The notes: generated by a model from the letters alone, not told the origin. 64,000 nucleotides of DNA from Candidatus Portnoybacteria bacterium RBG_19FT_COMBO_36_7 (GCA_001819495.1 MHMW01000021.1:10706-74705), one strand, 5' to 3'; positions 3 to 57,766 are shown, counted from the stretch's first letter. Program-made: numbers and translations.

Positions 3-1205
3 TGCGACGAAACTAGCATCGCCGTCTTACAAACAAAGGAGGACGGCGATTTTAGTATTCTCTCAAACATCGTTTCCTCGCAGGTTGCCATCCATGCACC
101 TTTTGGAGGAGTGGTACCAACTCTCGCCAAGAGAGAACATCAGAAAAATTTAACTCTCATTTTAAAACAGGGTCTTGCTGAAGCTAAGCTTTTAAAAGTT
201 CAAAGTTCAAAGTTCCCGCCCGCCTCGCAAGCGAGAGCGTTGCGGGCAGGCAAAGTTCAAAGTAACAGTGCAAAATTCAAAGTTTTAAAACAAATTCTTA
301 ATCGAGAAGAAACGCTTTTTAAAAAATTAATGCCGTTCCTTAAAAAGTACGCCAAACCCGATATTGACGTAATTGCTGTTACTGTCGGTCCGGGTCTTGA
401 GCCAGCGCTTTGGGTAGGCGTTAATTCTGCCAAAGCGCTCGCCTGCTTCTGGGATCTGTCGATAATTCCTGTCAATCACGTTGAAGCCCATATTATCGCT
501 AATTGGCTCAAGCCAATTAGCGGAGCTCAAAACTCAAATGCCAGAACTCAAAACTTATTTCCGGCGGATTGCTTAATTGTGAGCGGCGGGCACACACAAT
601 TGGTTCTGATGCGCGATTTTGGAAAATACGAGATTCTGGGCGAAACGCGGGATGACGCGGCAGGAGAGGCATTTGATAAACTGGCTAAAATGTTAAATAT
701 TGGATATCCAGGTGGTCCTATAGTTTCAAAACTCTCAGCCCAAGCCAAGAAACAAAAGCTTGCCCCGAGCGTAGTCGAGGGGTTAAAAGTTAAATTACCG
801 AGGCCGATGATAAATTCAAAAGACTATGATTTTTCTTTTTCTGGTCTTAAAACAGCCGCTCTTTATTTTGTCAAAACGCTGAATAAAAAAACACTTAAAA
901 AATTAACTCCAGCAATTTGTGCTGAATTCCAGCAAGCTGCAATAGACGTCCTGGTTTCCAAAACCATCCGCGCGGCCAAAGAATATAATGTAAAATCTGT
1001 CTTGCTCTCCGGCGGCGTCGCGGCCAATGACCTCTTACGCACGTCACTAGAAAAAGAATTCAAACGATTTGGCTTAGTTTTTTCCGTTCCGCCCAAAAAA
1101 TTCTGCACCGATAACGCCGCTATGATAGCGCTGACAGCGGCTAAAAAAACAAAAAAATATAATTGGCAGGAAATCACAACTGAGGCAAATTTGCGAATAG
1201 CTTAA
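3..1205 (+). CDS. tsaD: tRNA N6-adenosine threonylcarbamoyltransferase TsaD (Kae1/Gcp family). It is 5'-partial: the reading frame continues from the window edge upstream of the listed ORF start at 111
   Basis: Translation from nt 3 gives CDETSIAVL...HAPFGGVVPTLAKREH, then VTVGPGLEPALWVGV, VSGGHTQL, DDAAGEAFDK, PGGP, DFSFSGLKT, CTDNAAMIA. These are the canonical TsaD motifs. Confidence 0.85.
   Translation, partial: CDETSIAVLQTKEDGDFSILSNIVSSQVAIHAPFGGVVPTLAKREHQKNLTLILKQGLAEAKLLKVQSSKFPPASQARALRAGKVQSNSAKFKVLKQILNREETLFKKLMPFLKKYAKPDIDVIAVTVGPGLEPALWVGVNSAKALACFWDLSIIPVNHVEAHIIANWLKPISGAQNSNARTQNLFPADCLIVSGGHTQLVLMRDFGKYEILGETRDDAAGEAFDKLAKMLNIGYPGGPIVSKLSAQAKKQKLAPSVVEGLKVKLPRPMINSKDYDFSFSGLKTAALYFVKTLNKKTLKKLTPAICAEFQQAAIDVLVSKTIRAAKEYNVKSVLLSGGVAANDLLRTSLEKEFKRFGLVFSVPPKKFCTDNAAMIALTAAKKTKKYNWQEITTEANLRIA
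178..292. repeat. In-frame insertion of a short-period AT-rich repeat (caaagtt units) flanking a GC-rich palindrome (cccgcccgcctcgcaagcgagagcgttgcgggcagg). It is translated as LKVQSSKFPPASQARALRAGKVQSNSAKFKVLKQ inside TsaD
   Basis: Tandem caaagttcaaagtt units on both sides of a GC palindrome. The segment is a multiple of 3 and interrupts the otherwise conserved TsaD N-terminal region. Related motifs occur at 20815-20850, 57736-57762 and 63940-63990. Confidence 0.5.
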
Positions 1206-1226
1206 TAAAGCTGTTATAATCAAGCT

Positions 1227-3401
1227 ATGGAAAATAACGGAAATAAAGCTTATAATCCCCGCGAAATCGAGCCTGAAATCTACAAATTATGGGAATATTC
1301 GGGTTATTTTAATCCCGACAATTTACCTGTTTCAAAAATTAAAAATTCAAAAATTAAAAATTTTTGCATTATAATGCCCCCTCCCAATGCCAACGAAGCC
1401 CTGCATATGGGCCACGCACTTGATTTTACTATCCAGGACGCGCTTATCCGTTTTAACCGAATGCAGGACAAAAAAACACTCTGGCTGCCTGGTGCCGACC
1501 ATGCCGGCTTTGAAACCCAGGTTGTTTTTGAGAAAAAACTTGAGAAAGAAGGTAAAAGCAGGTTCCAGTTTGAACGTAGCACTCTCTATAAAATGATCTG
1601 GGATTATGTCCAGCAGAACAAGCATATTATGGAAGAGCAGGCCAGGAGCTTAGGTGCTTCCTGCGACTGGTCAAGAGAAAAATTTACTCTTGACCCAAAA
1701 ATAGTGGAGATTGTCTATGATACTTTTAAAAAACTTTACGACGATAAACTTATCTATCGGGGCAAAAGAATAATCAATTGGTGCCCAAAACATCAGACTG
1801 GCTTGTCCGACCTGGAAGTCAAATACGAAGAACGGGAAGATAAGCTCTGGTATTTTAAATACCCCCTCTCCTCGGGTGAAGGATTTATAGTCGTGGCGAC
1901 GACCCGCCCCGAAACTATGCTTGGCGACACGGCTGTAGCTGTTAATCCGAAAGATAACCGCTACAAAAAATTGATCGACCAAAAAGTTAAACTGCCTCTG
2001 ACAAATAGAGAAATTCCGATCATTACCGACAGTGCGGTTGAGCTGGAATTTGGCACCGGCGCGGTCAAGGTAACGCCTGCGCATGATCCGGTTGACTTTG
2101 ATATCGCGGATAGACACAAACTGGAGTTCATCGAGGTCATCGGCAAAGACGGAAAAATGACCAACGAGGTGCCAGAAGCCTATCAAGGATTAAAGGTTGA
2201 TGATGCCCGCGCCAAGGTAGTGGTAGATCTAAACGCACTGGGCCTGATGGAAAAAGAAGAACCTTATAAACATTCTGTCGGCGCCTGCTATAAATGCGGC
2301 CGGACAATCGAGCCCTTAGCAATGGAGCAATGGTTCGTCAAAATAAAACCGCTGGCCGAAAAAGCAATTGAAGCGGTCAAAAAAGGCAAGACAAGGTTCG
2401 TCACAAAAAAGTACGAAAAGACATTTATGCACTGGATGAGGAATATCAAAGATTGGAATATTTCCCGCCAAATAGTCTGGGGCATCCGCATCCCGGCTTG
2501 GTATAAAAATGACCAGATTCATATCGGCAAAGAGCCCCCAAAAGAAGATGGCTGGGTTCAAGATACCGATGTTTTTGACACTTGGTTCTCTTCGGGCCAG
2601 TGGCCCTTCGTCACTTTGATGACCAGCGGCCAAAATGACTTAAAAGAATTTTATCCAACATCAGTAATGGTCACTGCCTGGGATATTTTATTTTTCTGGG
2701 TGGCACGCATGATAATGATGGGAATTTATTGCACAGGTAAAGAACCATTCAAACAAGTTTACATTCACGGACTCCTCAAAGACAAATACGGCAAAAAAAT
2801 GAGCAAATCAAAAGGCAATGTTATCAATCCTCTGGCAGTAGTAGAGCAGCGCGGAGCAGACGCCTTGCGCATGTCTCTCCTGTTTGGTTCTGAAGCTGAC
2901 AGTGATACTCCAATTTCTGAAGAAAAAATTATCGCCCAGCAGAGGTTTGCCAATAAGATCTGGAATGCTTCAAAGTTCGTGATGAATGCACTCGGGCCAG
3001 ACTACAAGCCAACCAAACCCGCCCGAGGCGCCCAGTCCGCCGACGGGTGGAGGTCCGCCATGGATGGATACACCAAAGAAGACAAATGGATATTGAAAGA
3101 ACTTGAAAAAGCGACTAAAAAGATCACGACAGATATCGAAAAATATAAATTCCACGAAGCGGCACAGGAAGCATATCACTTCTTCTGGCACAAGTTTTGC
3201 GACAAAACTATAGAAGATGTTAAAATAAGGATACAGAAAAATTCCAAAGACGCTGACGCTGGCAAACTCGTGGTTTGGACTGTTTTATATAATTCCCTGA
3301 AGCTTCTCCATCCTTTTATGCCCTTTGTCACTGAAGCTATCTATCAGAAGCTCCCCTCCCGGCCAAAAGAACTCTTGATGATTGAAAAATGGCCAAAATA
3401 A
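1227..3401 (+). CDS. valS: Valine--tRNA ligase, short form (724 aa). It lacks the long C-terminal coiled-coil domain
   Basis: PPPNANEALHMGHAL (HIGH region), LWLPGADHAGFETQ, CDWSREKFTLD, INWCPKHQTGLSDLEV, KMSKSKGN (KMSKS). Confidence 0.85.
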   Translation: MENNGNKAYNPREIEPEIYKLWEYSGYFNPDNLPVSKIKNSKIKNFCIIMPPPNANEALHMGHALDFTIQDALIRFNRMQDKKTLWLPGADHAGFETQVVFEKKLEKEGKSRFQFERSTLYKMIWDYVQQNKHIMEEQARSLGASCDWSREKFTLDPKIVEIVYDTFKKLYDDKLIYRGKRIINWCPKHQTGLSDLEVKYEEREDKLWYFKYPLSSGEGFIVVATTRPETMLGDTAVAVNPKDNRYKKLIDQKVKLPLTNREIPIITDSAVELEFGTGAVKVTPAHDPVDFDIADRHKLEFIEVIGKDGKMTNEVPEAYQGLKVDDARAKVVVDLNALGLMEKEEPYKHSVGACYKCGRTIEPLAMEQWFVKIKPLAEKAIEAVKKGKTRFVTKKYEKTFMHWMRNIKDWNISRQIVWGIRIPAWYKNDQIHIGKEPPKEDGWVQDTDVFDTWFSSGQWPFVTLMTSGQNDLKEFYPTSVMVTAWDILFFWVARMIMMGIYCTGKEPFKQVYIHGLLKDKYGKKMSKSKGNVINPLAVVEQRGADALRMSLLFGSEADSDTPISEEKIIAQQRFANKIWNASKFVMNALGPDYKPTKPARGAQSADGWRSAMDGYTKEDKWILKELEKATKKITTDIEKYKFHEAAQEAYHFFWHKFCDKTIEDVKIRIQKNSKDADAGKLVVWTVLYNSLKLLHPFMPFVTEAIYQKLPSRPKELLMIEKWPK

Positions 3402-3403
3402 TT

Positions 3404-3520
3404 CCCAATTACCAATAACCAATTCCCAATAAAATTTCTAATGTCCAAATGTCCAAAAATGCCCCACAAGGCGGGGCATGGATTGGAAATTGGAAATTGG
3501 AAATTGGAAATTTTACGTGA
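3404..3520. terminator. GC stem (gccccacaaggcggggc) embedded in a long imperfect inverted repeat of ccaat/attgg-type pentamer units. Probable bidirectional terminator or insulator between valS and the next gene
   Basis: ccaattaccaataaccaattcccaat ... gccccacaaggcggggc ... tggattggaaattggaaattggaaattggaaatt. The two flanks are imperfect reverse complements. Confidence 0.4.
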
Positions 3521-54596: not shown

Positions 54597-55079
54597 ATGA
54601 GCCAAAAAAAGAAAGCTAAACCAAAACCTATCGCAAGATTATATTCCCGCCATATATCTTTAGGCATTCTTGTTCCAGAAAATTATGCCCGAGATCTTGT
54701 TGAACTTATCCAAATCGGCATCCCTTTTAGTTTTAAAGGATATCGCAATCCAAATGAAAAAGGATATGTCGTTCTTGAATTCGAAATTATAGGAACAGCG
54801 GAGACAAGATTCAATGAGGATCTGGAATCATTCTTCAAAGAAAAAGGTGTTACCTTTGATAAACCATCTACCCTCCGGCCCAAAGACGAAATAAAGCAGG
54901 TCCTTCAACGGGCCGAAAAAGCAGCTGAAACATCCAAAAAAGAAGTAGATAATGCTCATGCTCTCTTACGAGACGAAAAGGCAATTATTGTTAAAAGAAT
55001 GGGCATCCATCATGGAGTGATTCATGCTCTTTCTTGGGTTATGAACCAAAAAGGTATCGGCGAAATTGCGCCTGTTTAA
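54597..55079 (+). CDS. Hypothetical protein (160 aa)
   Basis: Good RBS (aaaaggaggacaaaATG); no recognisable family. Confidence 0.45.
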   Translation: MSQKKKAKPKPIARLYSRHISLGILVPENYARDLVELIQIGIPFSFKGYRNPNEKGYVVLEFEIIGTAETRFNEDLESFFKEKGVTFDKPSTLRPKDEIKQVLQRAEKAAETSKKEVDNAHALLRDEKAIIVKRMGIHHGVIHALSWVMNQKGIGEIAPV

Positions 55080-55099: not shown

Positions 55100-55135
55100 C
55101 CCGACCAGTCCGCACGACTGGTCTTTTTTTTGTTT
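55100..55135 (+). terminator. Rho-independent terminator
   Basis: ccgaccagtccgcacgactggtcttttttttgtttc. Confidence 0.6.
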
Positions 55136-55162
55136 CTTGAATTTTCCTCCCCTCCTCAGATG

Positions 55163-55628
55163 AGGAGGGGCTGGGGGTGGTGTTGATTTTTTAACTTCAA
55201 CACCTCACCTCTATCTCCTATCCTCAACTGAGGAGAGGAGAATAATTTGAAATTATTTTAAATTTTCAAAGATTTTTAACAAAACTCCGTCTAAATTATT
55301 ATTCACATCATTATCCCAAAATCTTAAAACTTTGAAGTCTAAGTTTTCTAAATACCCATCGCGTTTCTTGTCGTATTCTGAATCTATGTGCTGGCTACCG
55401 TCTATTTCAATAATTAGACGCTTCTTCGGACAGTAAAAATCTACAATATATTTACCAATGGAATGTTGCCTTCTAAATTTATAACCCAATCGGCTACTTC
55501 TTAAGCGCAACCAGAGAATAATTTCTTGAGGGGTTGATGATTTTCGCAACTTTTTACGAAACTCTTTTTTATTTTTTAAATTATGGACAGTGCGCATTAA
55601 ATCAACACCCCACCCTACCCCTCCCCTC
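55163..55628. mobile_element. About 466-bp mini-element: a DUF559 endonuclease gene bounded by ~26-bp G/C-rich imperfect terminal inverted repeats, each embedded in a hairpin
   Basis: Left gaggaggggctgggggtggtgttgat (55163-55188). Right atcaacaccccaccctacccctcccctc (55601-55628), reverse complement gaggggaggggtagggtggggtgttgat. Confidence 0.45.
55253..55597 (-). CDS. DUF559 / Vsr-like (PD-(D/E)xK) endonuclease-domain protein
   Basis: STPQEIILWLRLRSSRLGYKFRRQHSIGKYIVDFYCPKKRLIIEIDGSQH...KRDGYLENLDFKVLRFW; start taken at MRTVHNL. Confidence 0.6.
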   Translation of the reverse strand: MRTVHNLKNKKEFRKKLRKSSTPQEIILWLRLRSSRLGYKFRRQHSIGKYIVDFYCPKKRLIIEIDGSQHIDSEYDKKRDGYLENLDFKVLRFWDNDVNNNLDGVLLKIFENLK

Positions 55629-55684
55629 AACCGAAGGGAGGGAAAAAAAGTAAATTCTCAATCGAGTAAAGGGAATAAAAAAAT

Positions 55685-57766
55685 TTACATAAACAACGCC
55701 GCCAAGGCCAGCGTCAAAGTTCCTAACAATTTGACCAATACGTGCAGAGAGGGACCGGCTGTGTCTTTAAACGGATCACCGACCGTGTCGCCGGTGACCG
55801 AAGCCGCGTGAGCCGCGCTGCCTTTGCCACCGTAATTTCCCGCTTCAATGAATTTCTTGGCATTATCCCAAGCGCCGCCGGCATTATTCATCAATGTTGC
55901 CAAAAGTACGCCAACGATCGTACCAATCATAATTAATCCTGCTTCTGCTTCCGCTCCCATTAATAGCCCTGTGGCCACCGGAATAACAACAGCGAGCAAT
56001 CCGGGTAATATCATCTGTTTCAGCGCCCCTTTGGTCGTGATATCAACACACATGGAATAATTCGGCTTGCTCGTGCCGGCCATAATGCCTTTATCTTCTT
56101 TGAACTGTCGCCTGACTTCATTAATAATGTAGGAAGCCGCTTTACCAACCGCCCTCATCGCTAAAGAAGAAAAAAGGAAAACCAGCATGGCGCCGATAAA
56201 TCCACCAATAAAAACTTCCACTTTGGCCAAGTCCACTATTTTTAATTGTACTTCTTCCAAAAAAGCCGAAAAAAGCAGGAAAGCGGCTAGAGCCGCACTG
56301 CCCATGGCGTATCCTTTGGTGAGCGCCTTGGTCGTGTTGCCGGCTGAATCCAATTTGTCGGTCACTTTACGTGTTTCCTCTGCTCCGCCTGACATCTCAA
56401 CAATGCCGCCGGCGTTATCGGTTATTGGGCCAAAAGTATCCATAGCCAAAACATAGGCGGCTGTGGCTAACATTCCCATAGTTGCCACTGCTGTGCCAAA
56501 AAGCCCGCCGCCTTCAAAACCGCTCATAGCGCCCAATTTGTAAGAACCAATTAAAGCCAGCGAAATTGTCACAACTGTCGCGGCTGTTGATTCCATGCCA
56601 ACTGAAAACCCGGCAATAATATTGGTCGCATGGCCGGTAGCCGAGCTTCTGACGATTTCTTTGACTGGCCGGTATTTTGCTTCAGTATAGTATTGAGTAA
56701 TGTAAACAAAAGCGATGCTGGTTACAATACCGACAAGCCCCGCCCAAAAAAACCAGATACTGCCCAGCATTTCCATAGTAATAAAGTAAAAAGAGACAGC
56801 TGCCAGAAAACTGGCCACCAAATATCCTCTGTTCATCGCCTTCATCGGCTCATCAATTTCTTTCGGCCTGACCACCATTATTCCCGCGATGCTTGAAAAA
56901 AGCCCAAATGCCCGGGCAACCAAAGGAAATAAAATACCGCTGATGCCAAAATGAGGGAAAAGAGCTACGCCCAGGATCATCGCGCCAATGTTCTCGGCCG
57001 CCGTTGATTCAAAAAGATCAGCGCCACGGCCTGCGCAATCGCCGACGTTATCGCCGACCAGATCGGCGATAACGGCCGGGTTTCTGGGGTCGTCTTCTGG
57101 AATCCCCGCTTCAATTTTGCCGACCAGATCCGCGCCCACGTCAGCCGCTTTAGTATAAATTCCGCCGCCCAACTGCGCAAATAGCGCCACCAATGAGGCG
57201 CCAAATCCGAATCCCACGATCAAAGAAGGAATACTGGCCGCTGTATAGCCTAAAAAAGTATAGACAAGATAAAGACCGGAGATACCGATTAAGCTCATGG
57301 CTACTATCGCAATACCAGAAACCGCGCCCCCGCGCAAAGCCAAAACCAAAGCCCGAGCAAAACTAGACTGAGCCGCATGTGCGACCCTGATATTTGAACG
57401 GGTGGCACTCCACATCCCAATCCAGCCAGATAACAAAGAACAGGCTGCGCCAAACACAAAAGCAATGGAAACTTGATAACCATAGACCCAGCTGCCGGTA
57501 AACCCGTAGGTGCCCAACAATAACAAAGCCAAAATAACGGCAATTCCCCCGATTGTCAGATATTGTCTTTTTAAAAATGCGTTGGCGCCTTCTTTGATAT
57601 ACCTGGCGATATCAACCATTTTTCCTTGACCGGTTTGCTCTTCACCTACTTTTCTAGCCAGATAAAAAGCGAAAAAGATACCCAGCAGACTGGCAACGAT
57701 AGAGATAATGATTCCTATGTGCACGGCAATAGTTTCAAAGTTCAAGTTCAAAGTTGAATCTGCCAA
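55685..57766 (-). CDS. hppA: K+/Na+-stimulated membrane-bound H+/Na+-translocating pyrophosphatase
   Basis: GDNVGDCAGRGADLFES, DNAGG, 15-16 TM helices; 693 aa. The N-terminal LNLNFE is encoded by caaagtt-type repeat units. Confidence 0.9.
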   Translation of the reverse strand: MADSTLNLNFETIAVHIGIIISIVASLLGIFFAFYLARKVGEEQTGQGKMVDIARYIKEGANAFLKRQYLTIGGIAVILALLLLGTYGFTGSWVYGYQVSIAFVFGAACSLLSGWIGMWSATRSNIRVAHAAQSSFARALVLALRGGAVSGIAIVAMSLIGISGLYLVYTFLGYTAASIPSLIVGFGFGASLVALFAQLGGGIYTKAADVGADLVGKIEAGIPEDDPRNPAVIADLVGDNVGDCAGRGADLFESTAAENIGAMILGVALFPHFGISGILFPLVARAFGLFSSIAGIMVVRPKEIDEPMKAMNRGYLVASFLAAVSFYFITMEMLGSIWFFWAGLVGIVTSIAFVYITQYYTEAKYRPVKEIVRSSATGHATNIIAGFSVGMESTAATVVTISLALIGSYKLGAMSGFEGGGLFGTAVATMGMLATAAYVLAMDTFGPITDNAGGIVEMSGGAEETRKVTDKLDSAGNTTKALTKGYAMGSAALAAFLLFSAFLEEVQLKIVDLAKVEVFIGGFIGAMLVFLFSSLAMRAVGKAASYIINEVRRQFKEDKGIMAGTSKPNYSMCVDITTKGALKQMILPGLLAVVIPVATGLLMGAEAEAGLIMIGTIVGVLLATLMNNAGGAWDNAKKFIEAGNYGGKGSAAHAASVTGDTVGDPFKDTAGPSLHVLVKLLGTLTLALAALFM

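Follow-up and report, generated by a model that had tools for sequence, protein, structure and literature searches.

A YcjD-type DUF559 nuclease gene bounded by inverted triplex-motif repeats: a candidate cassette that recurs across bacterial phyla

In a stretch of 64,000 nucleotides from Candidatus Portnoybacteria bacterium RBG_19FT_COMBO_36_7 (the whole of which is referred to here as the window), positions 55142-55648 contain a cassette of ~510 bp in which a YcjD-type nuclease gene of the DUF559 family is bounded by inverted repeats of the triplex-motif (TM) class, to which the BoxC and PIT elements belong. A comparison of 80 loci that carry homologues of the gene indicates that the gene and its repeats make up one evolutionary unit that recurs across bacterial phyla, and we propose, with a confidence that falls a little short of even, that the repeats serve the nuclease as cis sites. 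Neither the gene family nor the repeat family is new, but the link between them is. A search of the open literature, with subscription-only papers outside its scope, retrieved no paper that connects DUF559 or YcjD with BoxC or with intrastrand triplexes.

The first-pass annotation had described a DUF559 open reading frame (ORF) of 114 aa at this place, and the description was borne out. Pfam PF04480 (DUF559) is matched over its full domain (E=8e-36, 122.7 bits versus a cutoff of 20.6; residues 20-124 of the 125-aa reading of the ORF that begins with TTG), and MTES_1575 is the only other Pfam family that the ORF matches. The predicted protein, which is 100% identical to a protein of the source organism, a bacterium of the candidate phyla radiation (CPR), has Escherichia coli YcjD as its best NCBIfam model (NF007294, E=1e-25). 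Because its score of 90 bits lies below the equivalog cutoff of 218, it is a relative of YcjD and not the same protein. It also aligns with a solved 'endonuclease-like protein' (PDB 3HRL, E=1e-21), and residues D53, E64, D66 and H70, which represent the conserved acidic and histidine catalytic core, are invariant across 23 homologues. Comparison of the gene with its orthologues gave a nonsynonymous divergence (dN) of ~0.10 and a saturated synonymous divergence (dS), and the protein is under purifying selection. No second DUF559 gene resides within the window. We considered the possibility that the protein is Vsr, the very-short-patch repair enzyme, and rejected it: the Vsr model TIGR00632 is matched weakly (E=4.5e-4, 20.5 bits versus a cutoff of 97.85), and there is no linked cytosine-5 methyltransferase gene, the cassette being adjoined by hppA and an unannotated 160-aa ORF and by no methyltransferase gene of any kind. 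Membership in a defence system was also rejected, as PADLOC returned weak domain-level matches only.

Repeats of the anatomy found here were first described in E. coli as BoxC (1992), later as PIT elements, and then as TM or TM_ECO (Holder et al. 2015, PMC4666352). As reported in that study, the TM_ECO consensus of 37 nt is CCCTCNCCC-N3-6-GGGNGAGGG-N3-GGGNGAGGG; E. coli K-12 carries 23 copies, five as inverted pairs; thousands of copies are distributed over 262 proteobacterial genomes, and many G/C-rich motifs are present in cyanobacteria. TM single strands form a stable triplex in vitro, as shown for TM_ECO only, and TMs are linked to locus instability. The authors stated that an activity providing genetic mobility was never found near TM repeats, and their paper makes no mention of DUF559, ycjD or an endonuclease (PMC4666352). 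In the class II purine motif that we tested for, a pyrimidine block comes first, its reverse complement follows, and a purine block mirroring that complement stands third (G·G, A·A or T·A triads); the ITxF criteria of the same authors call for a stem of >=8 nt, loops of 1-6 nt and a stem G/C content >50% (PMC4666352).

Three units at the locus, named A, B and C, have this three-block organization and lie within the ITxF limits. Taken on the strand that puts the hairpin in front, each unit is composed of a C-rich arm, a complementary G-rich arm, and a mirror-image G-rich block in which T or A faces A. Unit C, upstream of the gene, reads on the coding (minus) strand CCCTCCCTTC-ggtt-GAGGGGAGGG-gta-GGGTGGGGTG, followed by TTGAT, tta and the ATG; its stem is 10 nt long with 1 mismatch, the loops are of 4 and 3 nt, the GC content is 0.70, the hairpin z-score is -4.6, and the mirror score of 1.0 exceeds the direct score of 0.8. 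Unit A, which bounds the downstream end, reads on the plus strand CCCCTCCTC-agat-GAGGAGGGG-ctg-GGGGTGGTG, followed by TTGAT, so that on the coding strand ATCAACACC comes first, the C-rich block next and the hairpin last; it has a stem of 9 nt with 0 mismatches, loops of 4 and 3 nt, a GC content of 0.71 and a mirror score of 1.0 versus 0.78 for the direct reading. The extra unit B, just past the stop codon, reads on the minus strand TCTCCTCTCCTC-agtt-GAGGATAGGAGA-t-AGAGGTGAGGTG, followed by TTGAA, with a stem of 12 nt, loops of 4 and 1 nt and a GC content of 0.51. Stem mismatches in the three units number 0-2. Since unit B is oriented like unit C, units A and B stand head to head and make a 105-nt palindrome, which folds well (113 nt, z=-6.1). 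This layout is that of a gene-less pair, as is also seen in E. coli BoxC pairs (hrpB-mrcB and lldD-trmL), which are laid out like the ends of the cassette.

The first-pass annotation had reported two imperfect inverted repeats, each with a local hairpin. The arms are indeed there (55142-55189 and 55599-55646, 48 nt, 71% complementary without gaps) and the hairpins fold better than shuffled sequences (z -2.7 to -4.6), but the copies number three, not two. The further copies that were to be sought elsewhere did not appear in the remainder of the window: the three-block finder made 3 matches in 64 kb, namely units A, B and C (0.05 in composition-preserving shuffles), and TCAACACCNCMCC occurs 3 times in 64 kb, always at the locus (0.24 expected). 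The blocks of the window units (CCCCTCCTC, CCCTCCCTTC, TCTCCTCTCCTC) do not fit the TM_ECO sequence consensus, and the units carry an extra inner tail, GGTGTTGA. A permissive Rfam search of the locus region gave only sub-threshold generic long-hairpin miRNA models, and at the gathering threshold 20 homologue loci gave tRNAs only. Integron attC sites were considered and rejected, since, by eye, the junctions do not match GTTRRRY/RYYYAAC and the vicinity lacks an integrase. The interval from the stop codon of hppA to unit C holds a possible decayed half-unit, CTCAATCGAGTAAAGGGAATAAAA, which shares 75% identity with unit C over its loop and 3' arm.

Table 1. Coordinates of the cassette, its parts and the adjoining features, counted from the first nucleotide of the window.
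Feature	Position	Strand	Description
DUF559 / YcjD-like Vsr-fold PD-(D/E)XK nuclease gene	55253-55597	minus	114 aa; ATG at 55597, stop codon 55253-55255
Unit C, upstream TM repeat	55599-55648, core 55606-55642	minus	inverted-repeat arm; three-block finder match
Unit B, extra TM repeat just past the stop codon	~55196-55246, core 55201-55241	minus	repeat search and three-block finder
Unit A, downstream terminal TM repeat	55142-55189, core 55149-55182	plus	inverted relative to C and B
Composite palindrome, units A and B head to head	55142-55246	none	105 nt, 8-nt AT spacer
Convergent ORF	54597-55079	plus	160 aa
Terminator of the convergent ORF	55103-55123		followed by a T-run
Possible decayed half-unit	55657-55680		between hppA stop codon and unit C
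hppA ORF	55685-57766	minus	mechanical TTG start, 693 aa
Terminator-like hairpin	55694-55716	minus	over the last hppA codons, T-rich tail after it

The association of the gene with the repeats was examined at 80 homologue loci (439 kb) in reference genomes of CPR, Proteobacteria, Chloroflexota, Melainabacteria, Bacteroidota, Nitrospirota, Deinococcus and others, with 80 loci centred on hppA homologues (371 kb) as controls. The three-block finder made 161 matches at the DUF559 loci and 0-1 in shuffles of them, whereas the control loci contained 0 units and 0 DUF559 genes. At 58 of the 80 loci a TM lies <=150 nt from an end of the DUF559 domain, with a median gap of 9 nt between unit and gene on each side, and TMs are 31 times as dense beside the gene as in the rest of these loci. 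Units that face inward are present on both sides in 29 loci. A looser search, for hairpins only, found a C-rich hairpin adjoining the gene in 66 of the 80. At one locus (L045) an inward-facing pair that is far from the main gene, its units 425 nt apart, was found to enclose a second DUF559 gene; with the 29 main loci included, all 30 inward-facing TM pairs that are ~300-600 nt apart enclose a DUF559 gene. The upstream flank of the homologues typically holds a hairpin and G-block, for example GGGAGAGGG-TTA-GGGTGAGGG, shortly before the ATG, and the downstream flank holds CCCTCACCC-TAA-CCCTCTCCC and a hairpin directly after the gene, the stop codon often being inside the unit. Extended N- and C-termini of database homologues (GGVGWGVDLM..., ...LNTTTPS..., ...PSSSEEGKK) are translated units. 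The TM_ECO consensus is fitted at many proteobacterial, chloroflexal and melainabacterial homologue loci.

Several homologue loci show variants of the arrangement. In the proteobacterial loci L008, L040, L043 and L047 the second loop is enlarged by a small G/C hairpin, for example ggcgtgaagcgcc; the resulting structure of ~48 nt flanks the gene on either side as an almost perfect inverted repeat and is missed by the strict finder. Outward units, in which the C-block precedes the gene and the G-block follows it, reverse the usual arrangement in L039, L056, L017 and L037, Pontibacter among them, and in L005 the full palindromic form (C-block, hairpin, G-block) flanks the gene as direct repeats.

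The internal structure of the units shows that each repeat is constrained as a three-block structure. Among units with asymmetric purine arms, the third block is a mirror in 53 and a direct repeat in 9 (p=3e-6); the mirror is perfect in 51 of 75 units and the direct repeat in 11. The third block agrees with its own hairpin at 0.90, versus 0.78 when hairpins of other loci are substituted by permutation. Two units of one locus are more alike (0.82) than units of different loci (0.69, p=3e-11), and units within a locus often differ in block sequence, each keeping its own three-way consistency. Between unit C of the window and the upstream unit of a Portnoybacteria relative (L081), one position has changed from C:G·G to T:A·A in all three blocks. 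Because of the mirror rule and this covariation, a constraint of the triplex type on the DNA is favoured over a quadruplex, an RNA hairpin or direct protein-binding sites, which is not to say that a triplex in cells is thereby proved. A G-quadruplex was rejected on the ground that, while the G-rich strand has four G-runs, the mirror rule for A/T interruptions, which a quadruplex does not need, is nonetheless obeyed. Protein-binding sites in the form of direct repeats are disfavoured by the 53 to 9 outcome.

The two relatives L081 and L082 (RBG_13_41_18) carry the cassette at the same site, in the gene order nusA, hppA, DUF559, a variable stretch, tig and clpP. Identity to the window is 83% for HppA, 61-64% for Tig and 79-81% for the DUF559 protein. 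L081 has the simple form of unit, gene and unit, from which unit B is absent, and the window and L082 have the form with the extra unit B. In the outgroup L088 (HppA 79%, Tig 33%), hppA is followed after 65 nt by tig, with neither the gene nor a unit between them; this is the only empty site found. Because the L088 junction lacks both, the repeats arrived, and have remained, with the gene and not with its neighbours. Unit A is ~93% identical, by eye, to the orthologous units of both relatives despite the saturated synonymous sites of the gene. The comparisons indicate that the cassette was gained between hppA and tig before the three sampled Portnoybacteria diverged and has been inherited vertically since, and that the protein and the outer repeat have both been under purifying selection in this lineage. 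Recent mobility of the window copy found no support, on three grounds: the shared site in relatives of such Tig divergence, the purifying selection, and the single context found for each identical protein. Upstream of tig in L082 (5886-5944) there is a gene-less outward TM pair, which is absent at the corresponding place of the window.

Across lineages the contexts of the gene differ (hppA-tig, an ABC-transporter operon, an rfb operon). In a metagenome-assembled genome of Dehalococcoidia, two contigs (L067 and L071) are 94% identical over 411 nt from the exact outer edge of the upstream unit, and their upstream flanks are unrelated. Homologues are rare on mobile DNA, being present in 40 of 72,556 plasmid records and 3 of 50,697 phage records. 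The proposal of the first-pass annotation that nuclease and terminal inverted repeats form a self-contained unit without a transposase is supported by these data, as no transposase domain was found and the package recurs around homologues in many phyla and contexts. The picture that emerges is of a unit that moves or duplicates rarely and that is otherwise a stable, selected resident of the chromosome.

A related situation exists in E. coli, where the 3' end of the ycjD ORF falls within a decayed BoxC unit and fabI is preceded by a second unit. The ycjD-fabI region is the place where BoxC was first described. The gene is present in 3378 of 5426 complete E. coli genomes. When 59 sampled genomes were searched with a combined query of ycjD and one unit, the 37 ycjD-positive genomes had 14-28 BoxC-matching places (median 20) and the 22 ycjD-negative genomes 2-21 (median 4), with 2-4 in B2/ST131 strains. 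At the sapF-fabI locus, ycjD with BoxC alternates with the eefRABCD operon (PMC12817139). The BoxC unit at the end of ycjD in K-12-type sequence (W3110, L086, 640-760) has ~92 bases more than that of strain 88-3493 (L084, 1225-1270), and among these is a partial duplicate of the final ~40 nt of ycjD (GGAGACGGTGCTGGAGAATATT...), a rearrangement scar at the repeat.

One hypothesis for why the repeats accompany the gene is that they are cis-acting DNA sites of the nuclease that they flank. When made single-stranded during replication, repair or transcription, the repeats might adopt a hairpin or triplex structure to be bound or nicked by the nuclease, and such a coupling could be what spreads the cassette on rare occasions and repeat copies without the gene more frequently. 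It would be analogous to that between REP sequences and a RAYT gene, or between miniature inverted-repeat transposable elements (MITEs) and their parent element, with a Vsr-fold nuclease and triplex-type ends in place of the known parts. The window copy would then be an old and intact resident that is probably still active, rather than one that invaded recently. A ribosome-binding site may also be provided by the purine-rich third block, which precedes the ATG by 8-20 nt.

A number of observations weigh against this hypothesis. The arrangement is outward in 8 loci, and a strict TM is absent from the vicinity at 22 of the 80, some of which have variant or decayed hairpins; TM flanking was compared only between the DUF559 loci and the hppA-centred controls. 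The co-occurrence of ycjD with BoxC number in E. coli is suggestive and is confounded by phylogroup, with clear exceptions such as O157, which lacks ycjD and keeps ~14 BoxC copies. The hppA-tig site is the same in three Portnoybacteria, meaning that the cassette is stable on a short time scale; exact-protein look-ups of two abundant homologues gave a single context each across dozens of samples; and there are no solo repeats in the window. Outside the units, no target-site duplication was seen by eye in the window, L081, L067 or L071. VsrA, the one characterised DUF559-domain protein, is tied to cytosine methylation and not to repeats (PMC12907096), and triplex formation in vivo went undetected (PMC4666352). 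Action of the nuclease on the repeats, whether REP/RAYT-like or homing-like, has been reached by inference, and a 114-aa nuclease with no obvious strand-transfer or ligation activity cannot by itself explain integration. It is because of the inferred cleavage, the insufficiency of so small a nuclease for integration and the missing target duplication that we advance the hypothesis as tentative, and as somewhat more apt to fail than to hold.

A bolder extension, which we regard as possible and somewhat doubtful, is that YcjD-type DUF559 nucleases are the missing cognate enzymes of BoxC/PIT/TM repeats in general. They would then define a new class of nuclease-driven element with triplex- or hairpin-forming ends that ranges from CPR to Proteobacteria, and the gene-less repeats at unstable loci of E. 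coli, Enterobacter and cyanobacteria would derive from it as non-autonomous forms.

Alternatively, the units might be cis-regulatory or insulating parts of the gene: a hairpin that hides the ribosome-binding site, a stem that protects the mRNA end, or a polymerase block by which a potentially toxic nuclease gene is kept isolated. According to this explanation, which we think unlikely, the spread of the cassette would be due to ordinary horizontal transfer or recombination, and solo BoxC copies would be remnants or in unrelated use. The third block has GGAG/GAGG-like runs that end a median of 9 nt before the domain start, and no sigma-70-like promoter was found in the interval from hppA, with its terminal hairpin, to the DUF559 ATG, so that expression may depend on readthrough and local structure; furthermore, the upstream G-block could pair with the downstream C-block and close the mRNA, PIT elements block DNA polymerase in vitro (PMC4666352), and the cassette is stably inherited and selected. 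Yet PIT elements have neither promoter nor terminator activity and do not affect RNA polymerase, and the mirror rule is obeyed although RNA does not form purine-motif triplexes (PMC4666352). Gene-less units exist, as the 23 copies of E. coli K-12 and the pair upstream of tig in L082 attest, the better conserved unit is the downstream one, and near-identical sequence types from CPR to Proteobacteria are unexpected for a purely regulatory element.

Another scenario, improbable in our view, is that of a passive association, in which the DUF559 protein repairs T:G mismatches for the host, as a Vsr-like nuclease with no connection to the repeats, and small acquired genes land or survive at unstable TM loci. 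E. coli TM loci are indeed rearranged more than control intergenic sites (PMC4666352), the cassette-tig stretch is different in each of the three Portnoybacteria, and sapF-fabI of E. coli switches between ycjD with BoxC and the eef operon. In addition, a Caulobacter DUF559-domain protein works with a cytosine methyltransferase, and the atypically low GC content of the ORF fits a foreign origin. The geometry, however, seems too regular for chance capture, with inward units a median of 9 nt from both gene ends and the stop codon often within a unit. The 30 of 30 inward-facing pairs that enclose a DUF559 gene, the coincidence of the only three TMs of the window with its only DUF559 gene, the TM edge as the boundary of paralogue similarity in L067 and L071, and the lack of an adjoining methyltransferase gene are likewise difficult to reconcile with it.

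The last explanation, that the repeats are ordinary terminators belonging to the adjacent genes, or that chance and low complexity account for the resemblance, is scarcely credible: G/C-rich hairpins in intergenic DNA beside convergent and tandem genes could suggest it, but a T-run is missing from all three units, the true terminator being a separate hairpin; a terminator scan flagged only that terminator and the site in the hppA 3' end, the three-block pattern is expected 0.05 times per window, and the pattern is kept with DUF559 across phyla and occurs neither at the empty hppA-tig junction nor in the 371 kb of controls. The first-pass annotation had named repeats unique to this locus and explicable as terminator hairpins of the neighbours as the finding that would overturn its reading; because the T-run is missing, the terminator is separate and the outgroup hppA-tig junction has neither gene nor repeats, the units are not the terminators of those genes.

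The placement of the locus between a strong terminator and hppA was confirmed, and the terminator belongs to the convergent 160-aa ORF. That ORF has no Pfam or NCBIfam match and gave a weak Csn2-like match in PADLOC (E=0.003). The locus is not the GC-rich island that the first-pass annotation had taken it for: GC content is 31.3% in the ORF (z=-4.1 versus 37 long ORFs of the window) and 36.7% in the whole element, compared with 42.2% in the window, and high G/C is confined to the repeat cores (51-71%). At the other end, a terminator-like hairpin covers the last codons of hppA. The relatives have HppA proteins of 676-679 aa that start ~14 codons further in, and for this reason the true hppA start is probably downstream of the mechanical one. 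The stretch from the cassette to tig is a hypervariable spot beside the repeats: no two of the three Portnoybacteria agree in it, L081 having an opposite-strand ORF of 75 aa there and L082 lacking a called gene.

TM repeats have been catalogued since 1992 in hundreds of genomes, where they mark unstable loci, and the cross-phylum association described here makes a small nuclease family a concrete candidate partner for these orphan repeats. If the partnership is true, it would be the first functional context for a very large domain-of-unknown-function family, and the origin and upkeep of TM repeats would become a question that can be tested at the bench. Even in CPR bacteria, with their reduced genomes, selection keeps such cassettes in place.

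The closest known protein relatives are E. coli YcjD (NF007294; COG2852-type DUF559) and the protein of PDB 3HRL, which like the window nuclease are single-domain Vsr-fold proteins of ~115 aa that match end to end. The E. coli gene shares with the cassette the gene end within a BoxC unit and the second unit after it, and differs in that its locus has no upstream TM and its proximal unit is decayed or rearranged. The window repeats have the same three blocks and loops as BoxC/PIT/TM elements, a similar length (~35-40 nt), an intergenic location and a frequent arrangement as inverted pairs, and the units beside proteobacterial DUF559 homologues are of the TM_ECO type outright. Unlike those elements, the window units depart from the TM_ECO consensus in their blocks, have the inner tail and occur in 64 kb only at the DUF559 gene; no associated gene or mobility function is reported for the published elements, the DUF559 link being new here.

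Vsr and Caulobacter VsrA share the fold and the catalytic core with the window protein, DUF559 being a Vsr-like family, and VsrA shows that DUF559-domain proteins can be active in vivo (PMC12907096). The weak model match and the lack of an adjacent cytosine methyltransferase gene set the window protein apart from Vsr, and vsr genes are without such flanking repeats. Homing endonuclease genes and pairs of MITEs with insertion sequences resemble the cassette in having a small nuclease gene, defined ends, presence or absence in relatives, and gene-less derivatives. They differ from it, since no known homing family, transposase, target-site duplication, intron or intein is found here; the only empty site found, that of the outgroup L088, has no repeat to serve as a homing target, and an insertion sequence or MITE was rejected on the absence of both a transposase domain and target-site duplications. 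REP/RAYT (TnpA-REP) systems and REPINs have a HUH/Y1 (IS200/IS605-like) transposase where the window has a PD-(D/E)XK Vsr-like protein, and the window repeats add a mirror block. In other respects the likeness is considerable: a single-copy chromosomal gene lies between inverted hairpin repeats, gene-less copies and pairs of the repeats also exist, and the gene is mostly inherited vertically and is rarely found on plasmids or phages.

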